A DNA stretch of 64,000 bases from Christensenellaceae bacterium. Lineage in GTDB: Bacteria > Bacillota > Clostridia > Christensenellales > Aristaeellaceae. The stretch spans positions 16,217 through 80,216 of the forward strand of contig DUQK01000018.1 in NCBI GenBank assembly GCA_012837835.1, written 5' to 3'. The notes below the pieces were generated by a model. It worked only from the letters and a program-made list of their open reading frames with translations. It did not search any database and was not told the origin of the DNA. Position numbers and translations under genes: made by a program. Below are positions 3,557 to 16,321 of this stretch, in pieces. Position 1 is the first letter of the stretch. Each line of letters starts with the position of its first letter.

Positions 3557-4942
3557 ATGCAAAAACTAAAAGCCCTCTTTGCCCCCCGGGACATGACGGA
3601 AGGCACTCCTTGGAAAAACATACTCATGTTTGCTGTTCCTTTGCTGCTTGGAAATTTGATACAGCAGCTATACAATGCTGTTGATACCGCCATTGTAGGC
3701 AGGTATGTGGGAGATGACGCTGTTGCTGCTGTAACATCCTGTATGCCTGTTATTAATCTGCTTTTAGCGCTCATGGTGGGCATTGGGATGGGTACTAGTA
3801 TTCGTGCATCACAGTATTATGGAGCGAGAGATAAGGAAAACTTATCGCTTGTTATAGGCAACTGCCTTACCCTTACATTGCTTAGCTCGATTATTATTAT
3901 GGCTGTGGGTATTCCCCTTGTGCCGGTGCTTTTAAACCTGCTTAACACACCTGCTGAGATTATGGAATGGACCGGTCAATACCTCAATATTTACCTTGCC
4001 GGTGTTTCTGGCGCTATGTTTTACAACATGCTTTCAGGTATACTAAGGGGTCTTGGTGATTCACTCTCCGCCCTTGGTTTTCTTATTATAGCTGCACTCT
4101 TAAATGTTGTGCTTGACCTATGGTTTGTTATTCAGTTTGATATGGCTGTGGCGGGCGTTGCGCTTGCTACTATTTTGTCACAGGGTGTTTCTGCTGTGCT
4201 TTGTTTTATCAAACTAAAAAGTATGTCAACACTGTTTGATATTAACCGAAAGACACTTCGTCTTAACAAAAAAACCTCACTTGATATGATTAAATTGGGC
4301 TTGCCTACAGGTTTTACGCAGGCAGCCTTTTCCCTTGCAATGCTGCTTATTCAGCGGCTTGAAAATAGTTTTGGTCCTATGTTCATTGCCACTACCGGCA
4401 TTGTTAAGCGTGTAGATGGCTTTACAATGCTTCCAAGTTTTTCCTTTGGCAGCGCTATGACTACCTTTATCGGGCAAAATGTAGGCGCCAGAAAGTATGA
4501 CAGGCTGCATAAAGGCGCCGTTCAGGGCGCTAAGCTGGCTTTTTTTACGTCTGTTGTATTAACATGCGCTATTCTCCTGTTTGGCCGCAGTATGCTTGGC
4601 ATCTTTACTAATACGCAGGAAGTAATAGACCTTGGCATGAATATAATGTATATATTAGTGCCCGGCTACCTTGCCATGGGGCTTACCCAAACCATGTCGG
4701 GCGTTATGCGAGGGGCAGGCGATACCGTAACCCCTATGGGGATTTCGCTTTTTACCGCTATTATAGTGCGTACAACGCTTGCCTATGCATTGGTAGAGCT
4801 ATCAAAAACGCCTGAAAATCCAATAGGTGAGCCTTTAATGGTATATGTTTCAATGGTAATCAGCTGGGTTACAGGCGCTTTAGTAAATATATACTTCTAC
4901 CGCCGCGGTAATTGGAGGAGGTTGCTGTCTACTAAAGACTAA
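3557..4942 (+). CDS. MATE family efflux transporter
   Basis: 461 aa and polytopic. The N-terminal VPLLLGNLIQQLYNAVDTAIVGRYVG motif and a repeated 6+6 TM layout are typical of MATE/NorM. Confidence 0.85.
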   Translation: MQKLKALFAPRDMTEGTPWKNILMFAVPLLLGNLIQQLYNAVDTAIVGRYVGDDAVAAVTSCMPVINLLLALMVGIGMGTSIRASQYYGARDKENLSLVIGNCLTLTLLSSIIIMAVGIPLVPVLLNLLNTPAEIMEWTGQYLNIYLAGVSGAMFYNMLSGILRGLGDSLSALGFLIIAALLNVVLDLWFVIQFDMAVAGVALATILSQGVSAVLCFIKLKSMSTLFDINRKTLRLNKKTSLDMIKLGLPTGFTQAAFSLAMLLIQRLENSFGPMFIATTGIVKRVDGFTMLPSFSFGSAMTTFIGQNVGARKYDRLHKGAVQGAKLAFFTSVVLTCAILLFGRSMLGIFTNTQEVIDLGMNIMYILVPGYLAMGLTQTMSGVMRGAGDTVTPMGISLFTAIIVRTTLAYALVELSKTPENPIGEPLMVYVSMVISWVTGALVNIYFYRRGNWRRLLSTKD

Positions 4943-5004
4943 GTCCAATATGATGAAATACCCCAGTAGTATTGATAACAACAAATTATTGTTCGTTAAA
5001 AGGA

Positions 5005-5220
5005 CTATTCAATATTTTGCCATTTTACCCATTTAGAACTAGCAATTATCTTATGCTCTAAGCTATTCTGATGGTTTTCAAGATTATTTGATTCTTGGGA
5101 AACATATAATTCATATTTATCGTTTTCATTTTCTGAGCGTTGAATTTTGACAAAAGATGATTTTTCTTTTTGACTGGCGCCTAATGTGTTAAGTGACAGG
5201 GCAGATATATTTTCCATCAC
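5005..5220 (-). CDS. Small hypothetical protein (71 aa), third gene of the AT-rich cassette
   Basis: Start overlaps the upstream stop by ATGA (5217-5220). The protein is polar and charged with no TM segment. I recognise no family. Confidence 0.5.
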   Translation of the reverse strand: MMENISALSLNTLGASQKEKSSFVKIQRSENENDKYELYVSQESNNLENHQNSLEHKIIASSKWVKWQNIE

Positions 5221-5879
5221 GACCTCAATAACAGCTTTTTCCTTTCAGTTTCGATTAGTAAATGTAATTCATCTTTTGGTGGTATGATATTGTCAGTTTC
5301 TTGGAGATCTTCTGCGCTGTCTGCTGTTGCCTGACTTGTCCAAAGACCAGTATTGTACTGCAATCCTAATAGGCTTCCACAGATTCCGTTTTTAGGAATA
5401 TCTTGCCAAAGATCTATGGATTCCGAAATCCCTAAGTAGGATTTGCCATATTCATTGACTAGCTCAATCATTTTATCTAGGTTATGCTCATTAACGGTAT
5501 AGAAATAAAAGGTTTTTCTTTGCTCTCCAACACCTACATTATAAGCTTGGTGTGTTTTTCCTTTCCAGTTTTTAGGATTGAAAGAACCTGTGTCTAATAA
5601 GCCTAACATAAGTTTGTTATCAGTACCATCTTGACACTGCATGAGTTTTATGACGACTACCCCGCCTAGTTTGAGGCTATATGAACCCGATAGTTTGATA
5701 AATCCGAATTGCAGATTTTGACTATTTACAAATTTTTCAGCTAATTTCCGCAAACTATCTTCCCAATTTTTTATATGTATGCTTTTGATGTTTTTAATCT
5801 TTAATAAGTTATCCGTCTGCTCATCGGAAAAATCCTCTTCATCTTTAGTGGTCGGAAGCTGAACTTCTACATCCATCAT
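5217..5879 (-). CDS. Hypothetical protein (220 aa), second gene of the AT-rich cassette
   Basis: ATGA overlaps with both neighbours. Acidic N-terminus (TKDEEDFSDEQTD), then a beta-rich region. I recognise no motif. Confidence 0.6.
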   Translation of the reverse strand: MMDVEVQLPTTKDEEDFSDEQTDNLLKIKNIKSIHIKNWEDSLRKLAEKFVNSQNLQFGFIKLSGSYSLKLGGVVVIKLMQCQDGTDNKLMLGLLDTGSFNPKNWKGKTHQAYNVGVGEQRKTFYFYTVNEHNLDKMIELVNEYGKSYLGISESIDLWQDIPKNGICGSLLGLQYNTGLWTSQATADSAEDLQETDNIIPPKDELHLLIETERKKLLLRS

Positions 5880-6604
5880 ATTACATGCTTTGTTAAAAAA
5901 GCCCAGTTCTTTCTTGGTTTTTGGCTTATACTCAACAACATTTTTTTCACTAATTCTCCATAGGTGAGAATTCCGAAATATTGCTTATCAAAGTCATTAA
6001 GTGGCGGGAAAAAATTGCTACTCATTTCTTCGATAACAGTTTCTGATGATGAATCATTTGTCAGGGCAATAAAATAATATTCATCAACCCCTTCTAGGAA
6101 ATCCACCACACTTTCAACAACGGATTCTTTTTGAAGTTTTCGCCTTCTGCCATCCGGATGTTTATGGCAGGGTTCTATAATTGCTTGGGAAGATTCTTTT
6201 TGCGCCTTTTTAAAAGCTTGTACAAAACGGTAGCGGAAAGATAATTGAACATTCAATTTGCTGGATTGTCCTTTCAAATTATCAACACCATCTTCCCGCT
6301 CAAAGGACAGGCAGCTGCTAACATAATCTTTAAGCTTAGCTTCAATAAAAACTGCGTATTTTTTTCTGCCTGATTCAAACACAGCAATCAAGTCAGGGTT
6401 ACCAAAATGTGCAAAAGACGGTTCAACCATCCATTTGCAGTTTGTAATACCATCTTTCCAAGGCACTTCTTTGCCATCAAACAGCTTGATAGTACCAAAA
6501 AAATTATTGAGCTTCTTGTCTTTGTTTTTATCTCGATAGATATCCAACAAAATCCCATTGATGATTCCCCGTTCACCGTAAAATTGAATGTCCATATTAT
6601 TCAT
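5876..6604 (-). CDS. PD-(D/E)xK nuclease-fold protein (242 aa), first gene of the AT-rich cassette
   Basis: GGGAGG RBS (complement of 6615-6620) before ATG 6604. Signature residues are E11 in YGERG, D71 in GNPDLIAVF, and E88-x-K90 in AVFIEAKL, spaced as in Hjc/Mrr-like nucleases. Confidence 0.7.
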   Translation of the reverse strand: MNNMDIQFYGERGIINGILLDIYRDKNKDKKLNNFFGTIKLFDGKEVPWKDGITNCKWMVEPSFAHFGNPDLIAVFESGRKKYAVFIEAKLKDYVSSCLSFEREDGVDNLKGQSSKLNVQLSFRYRFVQAFKKAQKESSQAIIEPCHKHPDGRRRKLQKESVVESVVDFLEGVDEYYFIALTNDSSSETVIEEMSSNFFPPLNDFDKQYFGILTYGELVKKMLLSISQKPRKNWAFLTKHVI

Positions 6605-6633
6605 AAATACTTTTCCTCCCTAAATATTCTTCG

Positions 6634-6664
6634 TTTATAATGTCCTTTCGTAAATGTTTTTCAA
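6634..6664 (-). promoter_or_regulatory. Candidate sigma-70-type promoter of the cassette
   Basis: On the minus strand: TTGAAA (6664-6659), a 17-nt spacer, then ATTATA (6641-6636). It lies in the 78-nt gap after the glycosyltransferase stop. Confidence 0.45.
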
Positions 6665-6682
6665 TAAAACACACGAAAATGT

Positions 6683-7846
6683 TCACTTTTTATATTTATA
6701 ATTACCGCTTTCTATAAGCGCTTCATACCTTTTGAGCGCTTTACTTAAAATATTTTCCCAAGACATGGGTATGCTTTCTTTTGCGTTTTGTCCTACGTTT
6801 TCGGCAAGTTCATTATTTTCAAGAAGCAGTTTAAGTTTTTCAAACAGGCTTTCGGGTGTATTATCACACAGGAAACCGTTTACGCCGTCTTCCACGATTT
6901 CAGCTGCGCTGCTACCATCTATAAGTATTGAAGGGGTTGCCATAACAGCTGCCTCCCTTACTACCATAGGCGCATTGTCGTATAGAGATGGGAAAACAAA
7001 AGCTAAAGCTCTTGAATAAAGCGCGTCAAGCACAGCGGAATCATCTATATGCCCTATAAGCTTTGCGTTGTTTTTAAGCCCAAGCTCTTCTATGTCTTTC
7101 TGTATAGATTTCTCATCAGGACCTCTGCCGGCAAGTAAAAGCACAAAATCCTCACCGCTTTTTTTAAGCAGCGCAGCGCTTTCAAGCACTAATTTTATAT
7201 TCTTCTTATAGTTTATCTGCCCTACAAACAGCAGCATGTTTTTATCGCCTATGCCGTAGAGTTCTTCTACTTGCTTTATTTTTTCCTTATCTAATGTGCG
7301 AAAGTTTACGCCGTTTGGCATTACAGTAATTTCACCCTTAAAGCCGTAGCTATAGAGTACATCGGCGGTGGACTTGCTTACCGCCCATACTTCGTCGCAT
7401 TTTTCGTAGAAGGAAACAACATTGCTTATAAGCGCTTTTGATATTGTTTCGCTTTTAGTTGCCTTGTAAAAATCGTCGTAATATTTGGAATGGAATGTAG
7501 CAACTAGCGGAATTCCTTTACTTTTAGCAATTCTAACAGCCTCAATACCGGCTGCGAAGGGGCTGTGCGCATGGGCTATGTCTATTTTAGCCGCCCTCAT
7601 GCGCCTACGGTAATGTGTATCAAGCACAGGACTTCCTGTGCTGTATTGGGATATAGTGGGTATTTTAACTGCGCTGTAGTCAATAAGGTCAAATGGGAGC
7701 ATAGCTCTATTGCCAAAGTGATATAAGGGTGCGCTCACCGTAACCTTTGCGCCAAGCTTTGGCAGCGTTTCAGCGTACGCCAACACTACCCTGCCTACGC
7801 CATCTGCAATGGGAATGAAAGTATCGGTAAAAAGACCTATATCCAT
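6683..7846 (-). CDS. GT4-family (GT-B) glycosyltransferase
   Basis: AAGGAGGG RBS. 387 aa. The C-terminal FVFPSLYDNAPMVVREAAVMATPSI motif is typical of retaining GT4 enzymes. Confidence 0.8.
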   Translation of the reverse strand: MDIGLFTDTFIPIADGVGRVVLAYAETLPKLGAKVTVSAPLYHFGNRAMLPFDLIDYSAVKIPTISQYSTGSPVLDTHYRRRMRAAKIDIAHAHSPFAAGIEAVRIAKSKGIPLVATFHSKYYDDFYKATKSETISKALISNVVSFYEKCDEVWAVSKSTADVLYSYGFKGEITVMPNGVNFRTLDKEKIKQVEELYGIGDKNMLLFVGQINYKKNIKLVLESAALLKKSGEDFVLLLAGRGPDEKSIQKDIEELGLKNNAKLIGHIDDSAVLDALYSRALAFVFPSLYDNAPMVVREAAVMATPSILIDGSSAAEIVEDGVNGFLCDNTPESLFEKLKLLLENNELAENVGQNAKESIPMSWENILSKALKRYEALIESGNYKYKK

Positions 7847-7980: not shown

Positions 7981-8397
7981 ATGGAAAAGAAAACCATCGT
8001 CATTGGCGTTATTGGTGCGGACGTGCATGCCGTCGGTATCCAAATATTATACTATGCATTCTCTGAGGCGGGCTTTAATGTAGTAAACCTTGGGGTAATG
8101 GTATCACAGGAAGAATATATCGAAGCGGCGATTGAATCAAATGCCGAAGCAATCGTCGTTTCTTCATTATATGGCCATGGAGAGCTGGACTGTCAAGGGT
8201 TTAGAGAAAAATGCGAGGAGGCAGGGCTTGAAGGCATACTGCTTTATGTAGGGGGCAATATAGTCGTAGGCAAACAGCCTTTTGAAGACGTGGAAAAACG
8301 CTTCAAGGCAATGGGCTTTGACCGTGTTTTCGGTCCCGGTACTGCGCCTGAAACCACAATAGATGCTCTTAAAGAAGATTTGCTGGGTATAAAGTAG
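7981..8397 (+). CDS. glmS: Methylaspartate (glutamate) mutase S subunit, the B12-binding subunit
   Basis: 138 aa. Has the D-x-H-x-x-G cobalamin motif (ADVHAVG) and close overall resemblance to clostridial MutS/GlmS. This is not GlcN6P synthase. Confidence 0.9.
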
Positions 8398-8400
8398 TAG

Positions 8401-9798
8401 ATGCAAGCTGTACTGCTCATAGATTTTGGTTCTACATTTACAAAACTTACCGCGGTAGACCTTGAAGAAAGGCGCATACTTGCAGCTGCGCAGAGCTTCA
8501 CTACTGTTGAGAGCGATGTAATGCAGGGCTTTAACTGCGCACTTGAAATATTACAGGAACAGCTTGGCGGAGTGGAATTTATAAAGCGCCTAGCATGTTC
8601 AAGTGCGGCGGGCGGGCTTCGTATGGTGGCGTCAGGGCTTGTGCCCTCGCTCACCGCTAAGGCCGCAAAGCTTGCTGCCTTTGGCGCAGGCGCGAAAGTT
8701 ATAAAGACGTTTTCATATGAACTAACTGACGAAGATATAGACGTAATAGACGATATTGCCCCTGATATATTCCTTTTAACTGGCGGTACTGACGGCGGTA
8801 ATGTCAAGGTAATACAGCATAATGCGGGGCTAATTGCAACGGCTAAAAAGCCTTTTCCCATAGTAATAGCCGGCAACAGAAGCGCGGCTAAAGTATGCCA
8901 TGAAGTTATAGCTAGCGATATCCACCCTACATATATAACCGAGAATGTTATGCCGGAATTAAACAGGCTTAACATTGCCCCTGCGCAGGCGGTAATAAGG
9001 GAAATATTTTTAGACAGGATAGTATCTGCCAAGGGTTTAAGCCATGAAAAGGCGCTTATAGAGGGCATAATTATGCCAACGCCCGCATCTGTTTTAGCTG
9101 CGCTTAGCCTACTATCTAAAGGTACTGAAAAAACAGAGGGTATAGGCGAAATAATGTGCGCAGACCTTGGAGGCGCGACCACAGATGTGTATTCTATAGC
9201 AAAGGGTTATCCGCTTAATCCCTCTGTAATGCTTAGCGGTCTTAGAGAACCCTTTGAAAAGCGCAGCGTAGAGGGCGATATAGGTATGCGCTATAGCGCA
9301 AAGGGCATAGTAGATGCGCAAGGCTTGGAAGAGATTATTAACATTAGCGGTTTAAGTAAAGAAGAGGCGGAAAATTACTTAAGCGAAATATCAAAAGATA
9401 AGTCCCGATTGCCAAGCGATAATAAAACAAAGGCTATGGATTTTGCGCTTGCTGCACTTGCTATACGTACGGCGCTTATACGCCACGCGGGAGAACTTGA
9501 GCGCATATACACCCCAAGCGGCGCAGTATATAAGCAGCAGGGCAAGGATTTAACGGGTATAGATAAAATAATACTTACAGGCGGCGCGCTTGTACACTCT
9601 GATAACCCGCAGGCTATACTGGATATCGCTATTTCAAACATAGAAGAAAGCAGCCTTGTGCCAAGAAACCCTAAAGCCATAGTGGATAGGGGCTATATAT
9701 TATCAGCAATGGGGCTATTATCTACATATGATGAAGAAAGTGCAATTAATATAATGAAACAATATATAGGAGGGCATGTTGATAGAACTGGCCAATAA
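8401..9798 (+). CDS. glmL: Glutamate mutase accessory/reactivase protein MutL (GlmL)
   Basis: Sits between the S and E subunit genes as in Clostridium. The N-terminal [12 protein letters not shown] motif is actin/ASKHA-like. 465 aa. Confidence 0.8.
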
Positions 9799-11236
9799 GC
9801 GCTACGATGATGAGGAGTTTTTTAGGGAGAGGGAGGAAGTGCTTAAAACCTGGCACACGGGGCAAGAGGTAGATTTAAGCGAAGCTGTTGAGTATCAGCG
9901 CAGCATAAAAACGGAAAAGCGCTTCTGTACCAAGCTGGGTAATGCCATAAAAGGGAAAAAAACACTTGTGCAGCCAAGGGCGGGGGTTGCGCTTGTTGAT
10001 ATGCATGTTCAGCTACTGCAATATCTAGAAAATGAGGGTGAGGCGGACTTACTTCCCACTACCATAGACAGCTATACTCGCCTTAACCGCTATGAGGATG
10101 CGGAGCACGGCATTAGGGAATCCAAAACGCATGGTAAATCTATGCTTAACGGTTTCCCGGCGGTAAACTACGGCGTTAAGGGCTGCCGAATGGTAACAGA
10201 GGGTGTTAAAAGCCCTGTGCAGGTACGCCATGGCACGCCCGATGCAAGGCTGCTTGCCGAAACTGCCTATGCGGGGGGCTTTACAAGCTTTGAGGGCGGG
10301 GGTATATCCTACAACATACCCTATGCGAAAAACGTACCGTTAACTGAAACCATAAAAAAATGGCAGTATGTGGATAGACTGACAGGTTACTACGAGGAGC
10401 AGGGTATCTCATTAAACAGAGAGCCTTTCGGTCCGTTAACAGGCACGCTTGTGCCGCCCTGCGTATCTAATGCGGTGGCTATAATAGAGGGTCTGCTTGC
10501 AGCAGAGCAGGGGGTAAGGGACATTACCCTTGGTTACGGTCAGTGCGGCAATCTTGTGCAGGACGTTGCGGCTATAGAATCTCTGCGCTATATGAGCGAA
10601 AAATATCTTAAGCGCTTCGACTATGACGGCTATATATTGTCAACCGTGCTGCACCAATGGATGGGCGGTTTCCCGCAGGACGAGGCGAAAGCCTTTGGCG
10701 TTATATGCTGGGGGAGCGCGGTTGCAGCCCTTGCTAAAGCAACAAAGGTAATAGTAAAAACGCCCCACGAGGCTATGGGCGTACCCACAAAGGAAGCGAA
10801 CGCCGCAGGCTTAAGGGCAACAAAGCAGGTTATTACCATGCTTGCTGACCAAGCGCTGCCTCAAGATAGTGTACTTCTTAGCGAAATAGATTTAATAAAT
10901 AGGGAAACAGAGCAGATACTGGAGCGTACGCTTGAACTTGGCGATGGGGATATAGCTATAGGCACCGTTAGGGCATTTGAAGCCGGCGTAATAGATGTGC
11001 CCTTTGCCCCCAGCAGGTTTAACGCAGGTAAAATGATGCCCGCCCGTGACCATGACGGCGCTGTACGCTTTTTAAACGTTGGTAACCTGCCCTTTGACGA
11101 TAGTATTAAGGCTTTCCACAAGAAAAAGCTTGATGAAAGGGGCAAAGCGGAAGGCAGGGGAGTAAACTTCCAGATGGTAGTGGATGATATATATGCGATA
11201 AGCAAGGGACGCTTAGTTGGGCGCCCCCATAAATAA
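9776..11236 (+). CDS. glmE: Methylaspartate (glutamate) mutase E subunit
   Basis: Near-colinear with clostridial GlmE as I remember it ([43 protein letters not shown]). Overlaps the glmL end by 23 nt. Confidence 0.9.
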
Positions 11237-11255
11237 TATGGAAAGAGGGAAGAAA

Positions 11256-12494
11256 ATGAAAATCACAAAAATAATCTGCTCAGAAGGGCGCACAGGTTTT
11301 TATTTTGATGACCAGAAAGCAATAAAACAGGGCGCGAAAACAGACGGAAACATGTACGTAGGTGAGCCGGTTACTAAAGGCTTTACATCCGTTCGCCAAG
11401 CGGGGGAATCCGTAAGCGTAATGCTGGTGCTTGATAATGGTGATATAGCCATAGGCGATTGCTGCGCCGTGCAGTATTCGGGCGCCGCAGGACGGGATCC
11501 GCTTTTCTTGGCGGATGAATATATGCCACTAATAGAAAACGAAGTTGCCGAGCATTTTGTTGGAGAAAAGCTTGACAGTTTCCGCCGCCTAGCTGAAAAA
11601 ATAGAGCATCTGCATATAAACGGTAGGCGTCTGCACACTGCAATACGCTATGGGTTTTCTCAGGCGCTGCTGGCAGCTGTTGCCAAGGCAAAGGGCGTGC
11701 TTATGTGCGATGTTATAGCTGAAGAATACAACCTTAAAGTTTCTGATAAACTGGTGCCGATATTCAGCCAGTCGGGAGATGATAGGTACAACAACGCCGA
11801 TAAAATGATAATGAAAGGCGTGCCGGTAATATCACACGGGCTGTTTAACTCTGTAGAAAAGCTTGGCGAAAAGGGTGAAAAGCTGCTTGACTATATTAAG
11901 TGGATAAACAAAAGAATAGTCGATTTTGCCCCCTACGAGGGCTATAAACCTACACTGCATATGGACTGCTACGGTACCATAGGGCAGGTATTTGGCGAAA
12001 GCAACTATAAAGCCATGGCTGACTATATGGCGGAGCTTGAAAAAGCCGCTACGCCCTTCCACCTGCGCATAGAAGGACCCATGGATTCGGGCGATAGGGA
12101 AAGCCAGATAAGGGATTTGAAGGGTCTTAGAAATGAACTTGATGCAAGGAATATAAAAGTTGAACTAGTTGCTGATGAGTGGTGCAATACCCTTGATGAT
12201 ATAAAGCTATTTGTAGATAACAAAGCCGGGCATATGATACAGGTTAAAACGCCTGACCTTGGCAGCTTACACAACAGCGTTGAAGCCGTGCTTTACTGCA
12301 AGGGAAACGGCATGGGTGCATACCAAGGCGGAACTTGCAACGAAACCGATATTTCAGTAAAAGCTTGCATACATAGCGCCATGGCTGCAAACGCAGACCA
12401 AGTGCTCGCAAAGCCCGGAATGGGCGTTGACGAAGGCTATATGCTATGCTTCAACGAGATGCAGCGCATACTGGCTATTAAAAAACAGGGGTGA
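11256..12494 (+). CDS. mal: Methylaspartate ammonia-lyase
   Basis: ORF trimmed to ATG 11256, which follows GAAAGAGGGA. Matches remembered clostridial MAL blocks (GFYFDDQ, AVQYSGA.GRDPLF, ADEWCNT, KTPDLG, GGTCNET). Confidence 0.9.
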   Translation: MKITKIICSEGRTGFYFDDQKAIKQGAKTDGNMYVGEPVTKGFTSVRQAGESVSVMLVLDNGDIAIGDCCAVQYSGAAGRDPLFLADEYMPLIENEVAEHFVGEKLDSFRRLAEKIEHLHINGRRLHTAIRYGFSQALLAAVAKAKGVLMCDVIAEEYNLKVSDKLVPIFSQSGDDRYNNADKMIMKGVPVISHGLFNSVEKLGEKGEKLLDYIKWINKRIVDFAPYEGYKPTLHMDCYGTIGQVFGESNYKAMADYMAELEKAATPFHLRIEGPMDSGDRESQIRDLKGLRNELDARNIKVELVADEWCNTLDDIKLFVDNKAGHMIQVKTPDLGSLHNSVEAVLYCKGNGMGAYQGGTCNETDISVKACIHSAMAANADQVLAKPGMGVDEGYMLCFNEMQRILAIKKQG

Positions 12495-16187: not shown

Positions 16188-16321
16188 TAAACACCCTCCA
16201 AATATGATTGCTTTAATTATACAGTAATTCTACAGAAACTCAAGTGATGTTAACAAGATCTTAACAAAAAGTATTGAAAATTAGTACAATTTGTGTTATT
16301 CTTTGCTTGTCAGGAGGGCGT

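Follow-up and report, generated by a model that had tools for sequence, protein, structure and literature searches.

Contig DUQK01000018.1 of a Christensenellaceae bacterium (assembly GCA_012837835.1) was analysed over the 64,000 nucleotides (nt) from position 16,217 to 80,216, here called the window. Near the start of the window, three consecutive open reading frames (ORFs) lie on the reverse strand, the first of which, ORF1, carries the catalytic signature of a PD-(D/E)xK nuclease. Judged by alignment, ORF1 is the N-terminal third of a single gene for a protein of ~532 amino acids (aa), split into three overlapping frames, and the window copy is probably, at odds of roughly three in four, a recently inactivated gene (a pseudogene) of a new PD-(D/E)xK family. 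A first-pass annotation, made from the DNA letters alone, had taken the ORFs for a three-protein cassette with ORF1 as its effector. This is contradicted by the syntenic locus of a sister genome, which has one intact 532-aa ORF, and by the relatives, in which the gene product is a single protein: the three ORFs derive from a single gene, and there is no multi-protein cassette of which ORF1 could be the effector.

One gene in three reading frames

ORF1, ORF2 and ORF3 are consecutive on one strand, and the stop codon of each preceding ORF overlaps the start codon of the next (Table 1). Nearly all of their relatives are single proteins of 370–420 aa, and a few are 539–545 aa long. In homologues of 372–411 aa, ORF1 aligns solely with the N-terminal ~230 aa and ORF2 with the C-terminal ~125 aa (alignment A1; ORF2 matches residues 277–398 of homologue P0012 with a BLASTP expectation value, E, of 9e-28), and the 539–545-aa long forms cover ORF3 too. 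The sister genome is a Christensenellaceae metagenome-assembled genome, the contig of which (JAAYRU010000004.1, here L019) aligns collinearly with 12 kb of the window (~88% identity; 87.5% nt identity at the syntenic locus). Between the same glycosyltransferase and MATE transporter genes, L019 carries a single intact 532-aa ORF that spans ORF1–3. When this protein is compared with the window by tblastn, it returns three high-scoring segment pairs (HSPs) in three different frames.

The DNA alignment to L019 contains exactly two 1-nt deletions in the window, plus two in-frame indels (an 18-nt insertion and a 15-nt deletion in the window). At site 1, a single nucleotide is missing from an A-run near 5945, most simply by a change from A8 to the present A7, and three-frame translation finds the ORF2 frame open upstream as far as this run. 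One added A at site 1 would restore ...GELVKKNVVEYKPKTKKELGFFNKACNMMDVEV..., co-linear with the intact relatives; the repaired reading ...GILTYGELVKKNVVEYKPKTKKELGFFNKACNMMDVEV... is co-linear with ...ELVNKKVVTYNATAGERLGFFGKACKMMGVEV... of P0029, and the junction, once repaired, is exactly as long as in that protein. At site 2, A4 has become A3, and GAAACTGAAAAGG now reads GAAACTGAAAGG. Both frameshifts are real and not assembly errors, because six contigs, each from a different sample (four JGI, two Logan), match the window with 100% identity along as much as 1850 nt, both sites included. Three frames that belong to one alignment, together with the frameshift at site 1, imply that residues 1–221 of ORF1 are a genuine nuclease domain and that residues 222–242 are read-through.

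Table 1. Features of the disrupted gene in the window and segments matched by the L019 protein
Feature	Position	Strand	Description	Basis
Whole disrupted gene	5005-6604	(-)	Equals one 532-aa ORF of sister genome L019, here in three frames	
ORF1	5876-6604	(-)	242 aa; carries the nuclease motif	
ORF1, in-frame part (residues 1-221)	5942-6604	(-)	Complete predicted PD-(D/E)xK nuclease domain	
ORF1, out-of-frame tail (residues 222-242, MLLSISQKPRKNWAFLTKHVI) and stop codon	5876-5941	(-)	Without counterpart in any homologue; predicted local distance difference test (pLDDT) ~57	
ORF2	5217-5879	(-)	220 aa; linker, conserved C-terminal domain (GSYS...K...F motifs) and start of the long-form C-terminal extension	
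ORF3	5005-5220	(-)	71 aa; last part of the long-form C-terminal extension, which is continuous with the rest of the protein (in-frame fusion) in L019, P0028 and P0029	
E11 codon	6572-6574	(-)	Start of helix 1, FYGERG motif	
P70-D71 codons	6392-6397	(-)	Directly before core strand 2	
E88-A89-K90 codons	6335-6343	(-)	End of core strand 3	
Frameshift site 1	5941-5947	(-)	A7 run (GTGAAAAAAATG, coding strand)	Three-frame translation; 1-nt gap relative to L019
Frameshift site 2	5243-5245	(-)	A3 run; A4 in L019 and L031 (GAAACTGAAAAGGAAAAAGC)	Alignment
Promoter-like site	6637-6664	(-)	TTGAAA-16-CATTAT, upstream of ORF1	Motif scan
HSP 1	6604-5933		L019 aa 1-224; frame -1	tblastn
HSP 2	5912-5226		L019 aa 226-459; frame -3	tblastn
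HSP 3	5244-5008		L019 aa 454-532; frame -2	tblastn

The ratio of nonsynonymous to synonymous substitution rates (dN/dS) is 0.10 in the nuclease part (dS 0.50), 0.44 in the C-terminal domain (dS 0.36), 0.20 in the extension (dS 0.17) and 0.26 in the ORF3 part (dS 0.12); these are pairwise values of the window against L019, which cannot tell the two lineages apart and so leave the choice between a pseudogene and a functional split unsettled. Taken with the lack of secondary stops in ORF2 and ORF3, they fit a recent inactivation. The same two observations, an absence of further stops and a dN/dS below 1 in every gene part, also weigh against pseudogene status, as do the position of the first break, exactly where the last helix of the nuclease domain ends, and the existence of nuclease-only family members of ~245–265 aa. 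All four points would suit a functional split, the reading nearest to the first-pass annotation, in which ORF1 encodes an active nuclease, the effector, and ORF2 and ORF3 encode its non-covalent partner or regulatory subunits: the first break then marks the boundary between nuclease domain and linker, and nuclease-only members occur naturally. The stop codon of ORF1 overlaps the ATG of ORF2 (ATGA), and GAGG stands 5 nt ahead of the ATG of ORF3. Such a split is nevertheless unlikely. It is unique to the window strain, L019 and all other sampled lineages encoding one polypeptide, and each break is a simple loss of 1 nt from an A-run. The ORF2 “start” is the family-conserved MM of a KACKMM motif and has no Shine-Dalgarno sequence, ORF1 ends in a 21-residue nonsense tail, and the C-terminal domain is more relaxed (0.44) than the nuclease part (0.10).

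It is very improbable that the full-length protein is produced at a low, regulated level through recoding, by programmed -1 ribosomal frameshifting or by transcriptional slippage at the A-runs. Both breaks do need a -1 shift, and the sites, G-AAA-AAA and G-AAA-AAG, resemble A-AAA-AAG, the slippery site of dnaX and of insertion sequence elements. However, read in the zero frame, neither site has the canonical heptamer form X-XXY-YYZ, the RNA downstream folds no better than shuffled sequences (z = -0.40 and +0.64), and two successive low-efficiency events would be required. The shifts are not conserved either, the gene being in frame in the sister genome and in all relatives, and A7 and A5 runs are short for efficient polymerase slippage. 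Among metagenome contigs inspected for variant A-run alleles at site 2, only the intact L019-type allele was found, and phase variation is thus unsupported. The least credible alternative is that the organism has an unbroken gene and that the frameshifts are homopolymer errors of sequencing or assembly. Both lesions lie within homopolymer runs, and a related database entry, P0002, is itself an artefact of a contig with 0.98x coverage; yet the six contigs mentioned above agree through both sites, and A3 versus A4 is no typical error-prone length.

A recently inactivated gene, the reading preferred here, may still yield a truncated nuclease domain that ends in 21 residues of junk and lacks the C-terminal domains, because ORF1 keeps a good Shine-Dalgarno sequence, GGGAGG (6615–6620, 10 nt ahead of its ATG) and a well-placed promoter-like site. 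Promoter-like sites in the scan were not more numerous than expected by chance, and the one at ORF1 is suggestive by position only. The earlier description of ORF1 as probably an active nuclease is therefore doubtful for the window copy, in which the gene is disrupted and would at best yield this truncated domain.

The G+C content of the region 4800–6800, and of the three ORFs, is 33–38%, compared to 42–50% in the flanking genes. By this measure the gene is compositionally foreign yet not a recent arrival, as the L019 locus is syntenic at ~88% identity. Synonymous divergence from the L019 gene (7001–8599) is uneven along its length, with dS of 0.50 in the nuclease part, 0.36 in the C-terminal domain and 0.12–0.17 in the 3' extension, which may reflect a recombination mosaic. 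Inside ORF1, a 62-aa ORF runs in an alternative frame (6388–6576, reverse strand), and the same frame supplies the spurious N-terminus of P0002. This 62-aa ORF was rejected as a gene. P0002 itself, an apparent homologue of 245 aa whose N-terminus differs, was likewise set aside as an artefact, its low-coverage contig being full of broken genes.

Just past the glycosyltransferase gene, a glutamate mutase / methylaspartate ammonia-lyase (MAAL) operon occupies 7981–12494 on the forward strand. It encodes a B12-binding subunit (138 aa), a MutL-like protein (465 aa), Met_asp_mut_E (486 aa) and MAAL (425 aa), labelled with the Pfam names of the identical contig L002, and points to glutamate fermentation via the methylaspartate route.

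Nuclease motif and predicted fold

Translation of ORF1 confirms the residues on which the nuclease assignment was originally built, namely E11 in FYGERGIINGIL, P70-D71 in HFGNPDLIAV and E88-A-K90 in YAVFIEAKLK, with a 16-residue spacer between D71 and E88. Taken alone, the bare pattern would be weak evidence: E-x(40-80)-PD-x(10-25)-[DE]xK arises in 7% of shuffles of the ORF1 protein, and the shorter PD-x(10-25)-[DE]xK is present in 6 of the 56 window ORFs of at least 150 aa. The motif stands above chance because it is conserved across a family. A word-indexed search found 25 relatives, and a HMMER profile built from them, scanned against 1.84 billion cluster representatives, matched 745 proteins at E <= 1e-3 and 112 at E <= 1e-30; clustered at 50% identity, the family thus counts ~745 clusters. 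When 154 representatives of these clusters are aligned, the catalytic positions that the first-pass annotation had singled out for a check of conservation are near-invariant: E11 is kept in 148, P70 and D71 in 152 each, and E88 and K90 in 153 each. Further near-invariant positions are E61 (151), S115 (149), N118 (144), Q120 (151) and R126 (151) and, in the C-terminal half, R155 (152), T182 (141) and D184 (138); P200 and G211 of ORF1 are likewise conserved in the family. In two smaller family alignments (A2 and A3), the catalytic residues are invariant or near-invariant.

The AlphaFold2 (AF2) model of ORF1, computed from a 101-sequence alignment, is a single confident unit with a mean pLDDT of 91.9 and a predicted template modelling score (pTM) of 0.90. 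Its secondary structure elements, as assigned by DSSP, are H10-24, H28-37, E54-60, E72-78, E81-89, H117-137, H160-169, E175-182, H187-193, E210-214 and H215-220. E11 stands at the start of helix 1, D71 immediately precedes strand 2, and E88 and K90 are at the end of strand 3; a β-hairpin of strands 2 and 3 would put D71, E88 and K90 side by side. The AF2 model of the full-length homologue P0012 has the same order of elements. The topology and the placement of the motif fit the canonical restriction-endonuclease-like core (as defined in PMC3424549), in agreement with the fold that had been anticipated from the sequence. With the conservation of the motif added, a PD-(D/E)xK nuclease domain of this fold is very probable for ORF1. 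Neither of the two refuting conditions named in the first-pass annotation, a different predicted fold or poor conservation of the motif among homologues, is borne out. The fold assignment draws on the model, on motif placement and on weak structural neighbours.

The model corrects the earlier view of the C-terminal part of ORF1. The ~100 residues from residue 140 onward had been described as free of motifs and as a possible regulatory or partner-binding domain. Within this stretch, residues 140–221 belong to the nuclease unit (pTM 0.90, with a block pLDDT of 93–98), to which they contribute core strand 4 (E175-182) and conserved residues (R155, T182, D184, P200 and G211), and residues 222–242, with a pLDDT of ~57, are out-of-frame read-through past the frameshift. 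The true extra domains are, by the alignment, those encoded by ORF2 and ORF3.

Structural comparison with Foldseek leans, weakly, in the same direction. Of the 50 top matches to the ORF1 model in the Protein Data Bank (PDB), 30 are PD-(D/E)xK nucleases, including PaqCI, BamHI, FokI, N.BspD6I, Bax1, the R2 endonuclease, Hjc, SwaI, CinB, DdmD and Cap4; the rest are mostly metallo-β-lactamase noise. The best matches in the viral library BFVD are herpesvirus UL24, baculovirus alk-exo, Cas4-like exonucleases and phage proteins labelled PD-(D/E)XK, the top ones having E ~1e-3 and a probability of up to 0.99. The whole 398-aa model of P0012 gave weak matches only. Several results weigh against the nuclease assignment. 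The PDB search with the ORF1 model gave no match at E <= 1e-3, with TM-scores of 0.2–0.3, and neither ORF1 nor alignments A2, A3 and A4 matched a PDB entry by sequence or profile. Scans of ORF1–3 against Pfam, NCBIfam, PHROGs and PADLOC returned nothing usable (ORF1 had no match at E <= 1), and a Pfam scan of 101 family members detected no nuclease family at E <= 0.01.

A protein that is not a nuclease, one that uses a restriction-endonuclease-like fold for binding only or has another fold altogether, would account for the lack of a significant PDB match, for the metallo-β-lactamases among the weak ones and for a motif that, in its bare form, arises by chance in 7–10% of shuffled sequences. 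Inactive members of the PD-(D/E)xK superfamily do exist. Variation of the active site within the superfamily has been described (PMC3424549). We nonetheless find this improbable in view of the four canonical catalytic positions and the nearby polar residues, near-invariant in ~150 divergent representatives, of a topology and a motif placement that fit the canonical core, and of weak structural neighbours that are mostly PD-(D/E)xK nucleases in two libraries. Intact family members would, going by the model and the motif, be divalent-metal-dependent phosphodiesterases that act most likely on DNA.

The family shares with the PD-(D/E)xK superfamily the acidic residue in helix 1, the PD before strand 2, the ExK in strand 3 and a hairpin spacer of 16 residues, all of them conserved. 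It differs in matching, by sequence, no solved structure and no family that Pfam or NCBIfam catalogues, in its additional invariant residues (E61, S115, N118, Q120, R126, R155, T182 and D184) and in large insertions between strands 3 and 4. Membership in the Hjc, Mrr, NucS or Cap4 groups, with which ORF1 had been associated, is unsupported, as there is no Pfam, NCBIfam or PADLOC match and the fold matches are weak. The best-ranked neighbours in the viral library are UL24 proteins (PF01646, a predicted endonuclease placed in group 105 of the superfamily in PMC3424549), with E of 1.2e-3 to 1e-2 and probabilities of 0.84–0.99. Their TM-scores, however, are only 0.2–0.3, PF01646 itself is not matched, and UL24 belongs to viruses of eukaryotes and to another context, which limits the resemblance to the core. 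The top weak neighbours in the PDB, namely cleavage domains of type II and type IIS restriction enzymes, PaqCI (8em1), FokI (1fok, 2fok), N.BspD6I (2ewf) and BamHI (2bam), and the Holliday-junction resolvase Hjc (2wcw, 2wiw), follow the same catalytic motif logic, but with E of 0.08–0.5 and probabilities of at most 0.35, and no methyltransferase or specificity partner is found near ORF1. Cap4 (6wan_F), which also couples a nuclease to another domain, is among the weak matches (probability 0.09). Unlike Cap4/NucC-type effectors of cyclic-oligonucleotide-based antiphage signalling systems (CBASS), the ORF1 family lacks SAVED and CARF domains, has no neighbouring cyclase and matches nothing in PADLOC.

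Architecture of the intact protein

Aligned with its relatives, the intact gene reads as a predicted PD-(D/E)xK nuclease domain followed by a conserved C-terminal domain and a C-terminal extension. The AF2 model of P0012 (398 aa, pLDDT 80) consists of a nuclease domain (residues 1–232), a poorly ordered linker, which holds a conserved KACKMM helix, and a C-terminal α/β domain (residues 286–398) with invariant GSYS, K and F positions. The Foldseek neighbours of the C-terminal domain are all weak: YjbR (2fki), DUF1801 (2oc6) and VP1028 (2od0) have TM-scores to the target of 0.41–0.46 and probabilities of 0.44–0.51. A YjbR (PF04237)/DUF1801-like identity of this domain is unsupported, as hhalign of profile A4 against E. 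coli YjbR gave a probability of 0.1 and Pfam returned no match.

The long forms (L019 and P0027–29) add ~130 residues with a conserved GLQYNTGLW motif, which in the window are encoded by the tail of ORF2 and by ORF3. The extension occupies 5005–5440 on the reverse strand of the window (aa 400–532 of the L019 protein) and has no family match. At the other end of the protein, the distant members P0125, P0131, P0150 and P0104 have an extra ~95–230 residues ahead of the YGERG/YAERG/YSERG motif.

Apparently broken copies of the gene occur elsewhere. In L017 (5001–6627), a close relative is split into 150 aa and 399 aa, and the peptide IIERDVEYPD occurs both before and after the break, which reflects either a short duplication or an artefact of scaffolding and lies elsewhere in the gene than the breaks in the window. 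In L033 (575–1045) and L034 (646–1116), from two samples, a 156-aa remnant of the nuclease gene follows a gene for an HD-domain partner and is itself followed by a gene on the opposite strand. This remnant appears to be another decayed copy.

Gene neighbourhood and meaning of the family

In nine distinct loci of the relatives, the nuclease gene is directly adjoined by a gene for one and the same family of HD-domain proteins (177–195 aa), which lies upstream in L016/L020, L017, L021, L027, L028, L029/L030, L033/L034 and L036 and downstream in L023. These proteins match Pfam HD and, weakly, Cas3-HD and MobH-like models. Beside the pair, five of the nine loci carry a divergent SpoVK/CbbX-type AAA+ ATPase (664–670 aa) and a WYL regulator; WCX is also detected in L017, and a sixth locus, L028, has a WYL/WCX regulator only. 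The HD–nuclease block seems to behave as a movable unit, because its outer flanks differ from locus to locus. Among other relatives, P0023 is encoded beside McrBC, DUF2779 and DUF2130 genes, and the P0012 gene is solitary.

Defence systems are known to have WYL regulators of this type encoded beside them (PMC9122601). The loci of the relatives resemble such modules, with BrxR/CapW-type regulation, in that a divergent WYL gene lies beside the HD–nuclease pair in at least six of them, with WCX in two, and differ in that the regulated genes match no known defence system and that the window locus has no WYL gene. An intact gene, usually second in a pair of HD hydrolase and nuclease, would be part of an inducible nucleic-acid-degrading module. 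A role of the family in defence, or in an inducible response to DNA damage, is accordingly possible, though tentative; it is an argument of guilt by association, because the gene neighbourhood of the relatives is what supports it. Other observations speak against it: neither the window locus nor that of L019 has an HD, WYL or AAA neighbour, and no relatives were found in IMG/VR, among PLSDB plasmids or among GenBank phages. In PADLOC-DB v2, ORF1–3, the L019 protein, P0012 and P0023 match no defence-system model, and the neighbours of the relatives match, weakly, only generic Cas3-HD, WYL and IetA-like AAA models. A literature search for a system of HD, WYL and restriction-endonuclease-like proteins retrieved no description of such a module. 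More doubtful still is a fuller proposal, in which intact members, with a PD-(D/E)xK nuclease and a novel C-terminal domain and usually paired with a Cas3-HD-like hydrolase of 189 aa, would be the effectors of a so far undescribed, WYL-regulated system that degrades nucleic acids in anti-phage defence or in response to DNA damage, and the window strain would keep a still-selected, free-standing nuclease domain, naturally split.

For the window, the consequence is one of annotation. The three “hypothetical proteins” of 242, 220 and 70–71 aa are to be merged into one frameshifted gene or pseudogene, and ORF1–3 are not to be read as a cassette of toxin, effector or partner proteins. The feature is most likely a decayed copy of a new family inside a well-known superfamily. 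Neither point would surprise specialists, because new PD-(D/E)xK families turn up frequently, as do their decayed copies. The family itself is newly defined and, with ~745 clusters, fairly large; none of the libraries searched (Pfam, NCBIfam, PADLOC, PHROGs and PDB) has an entry for it. Its clear catalytic signature, its confident model and the recurrent neighbourhood of HD and nuclease genes (with WYL and with AAA) make it a candidate for a defence screen or for a Pfam entry.

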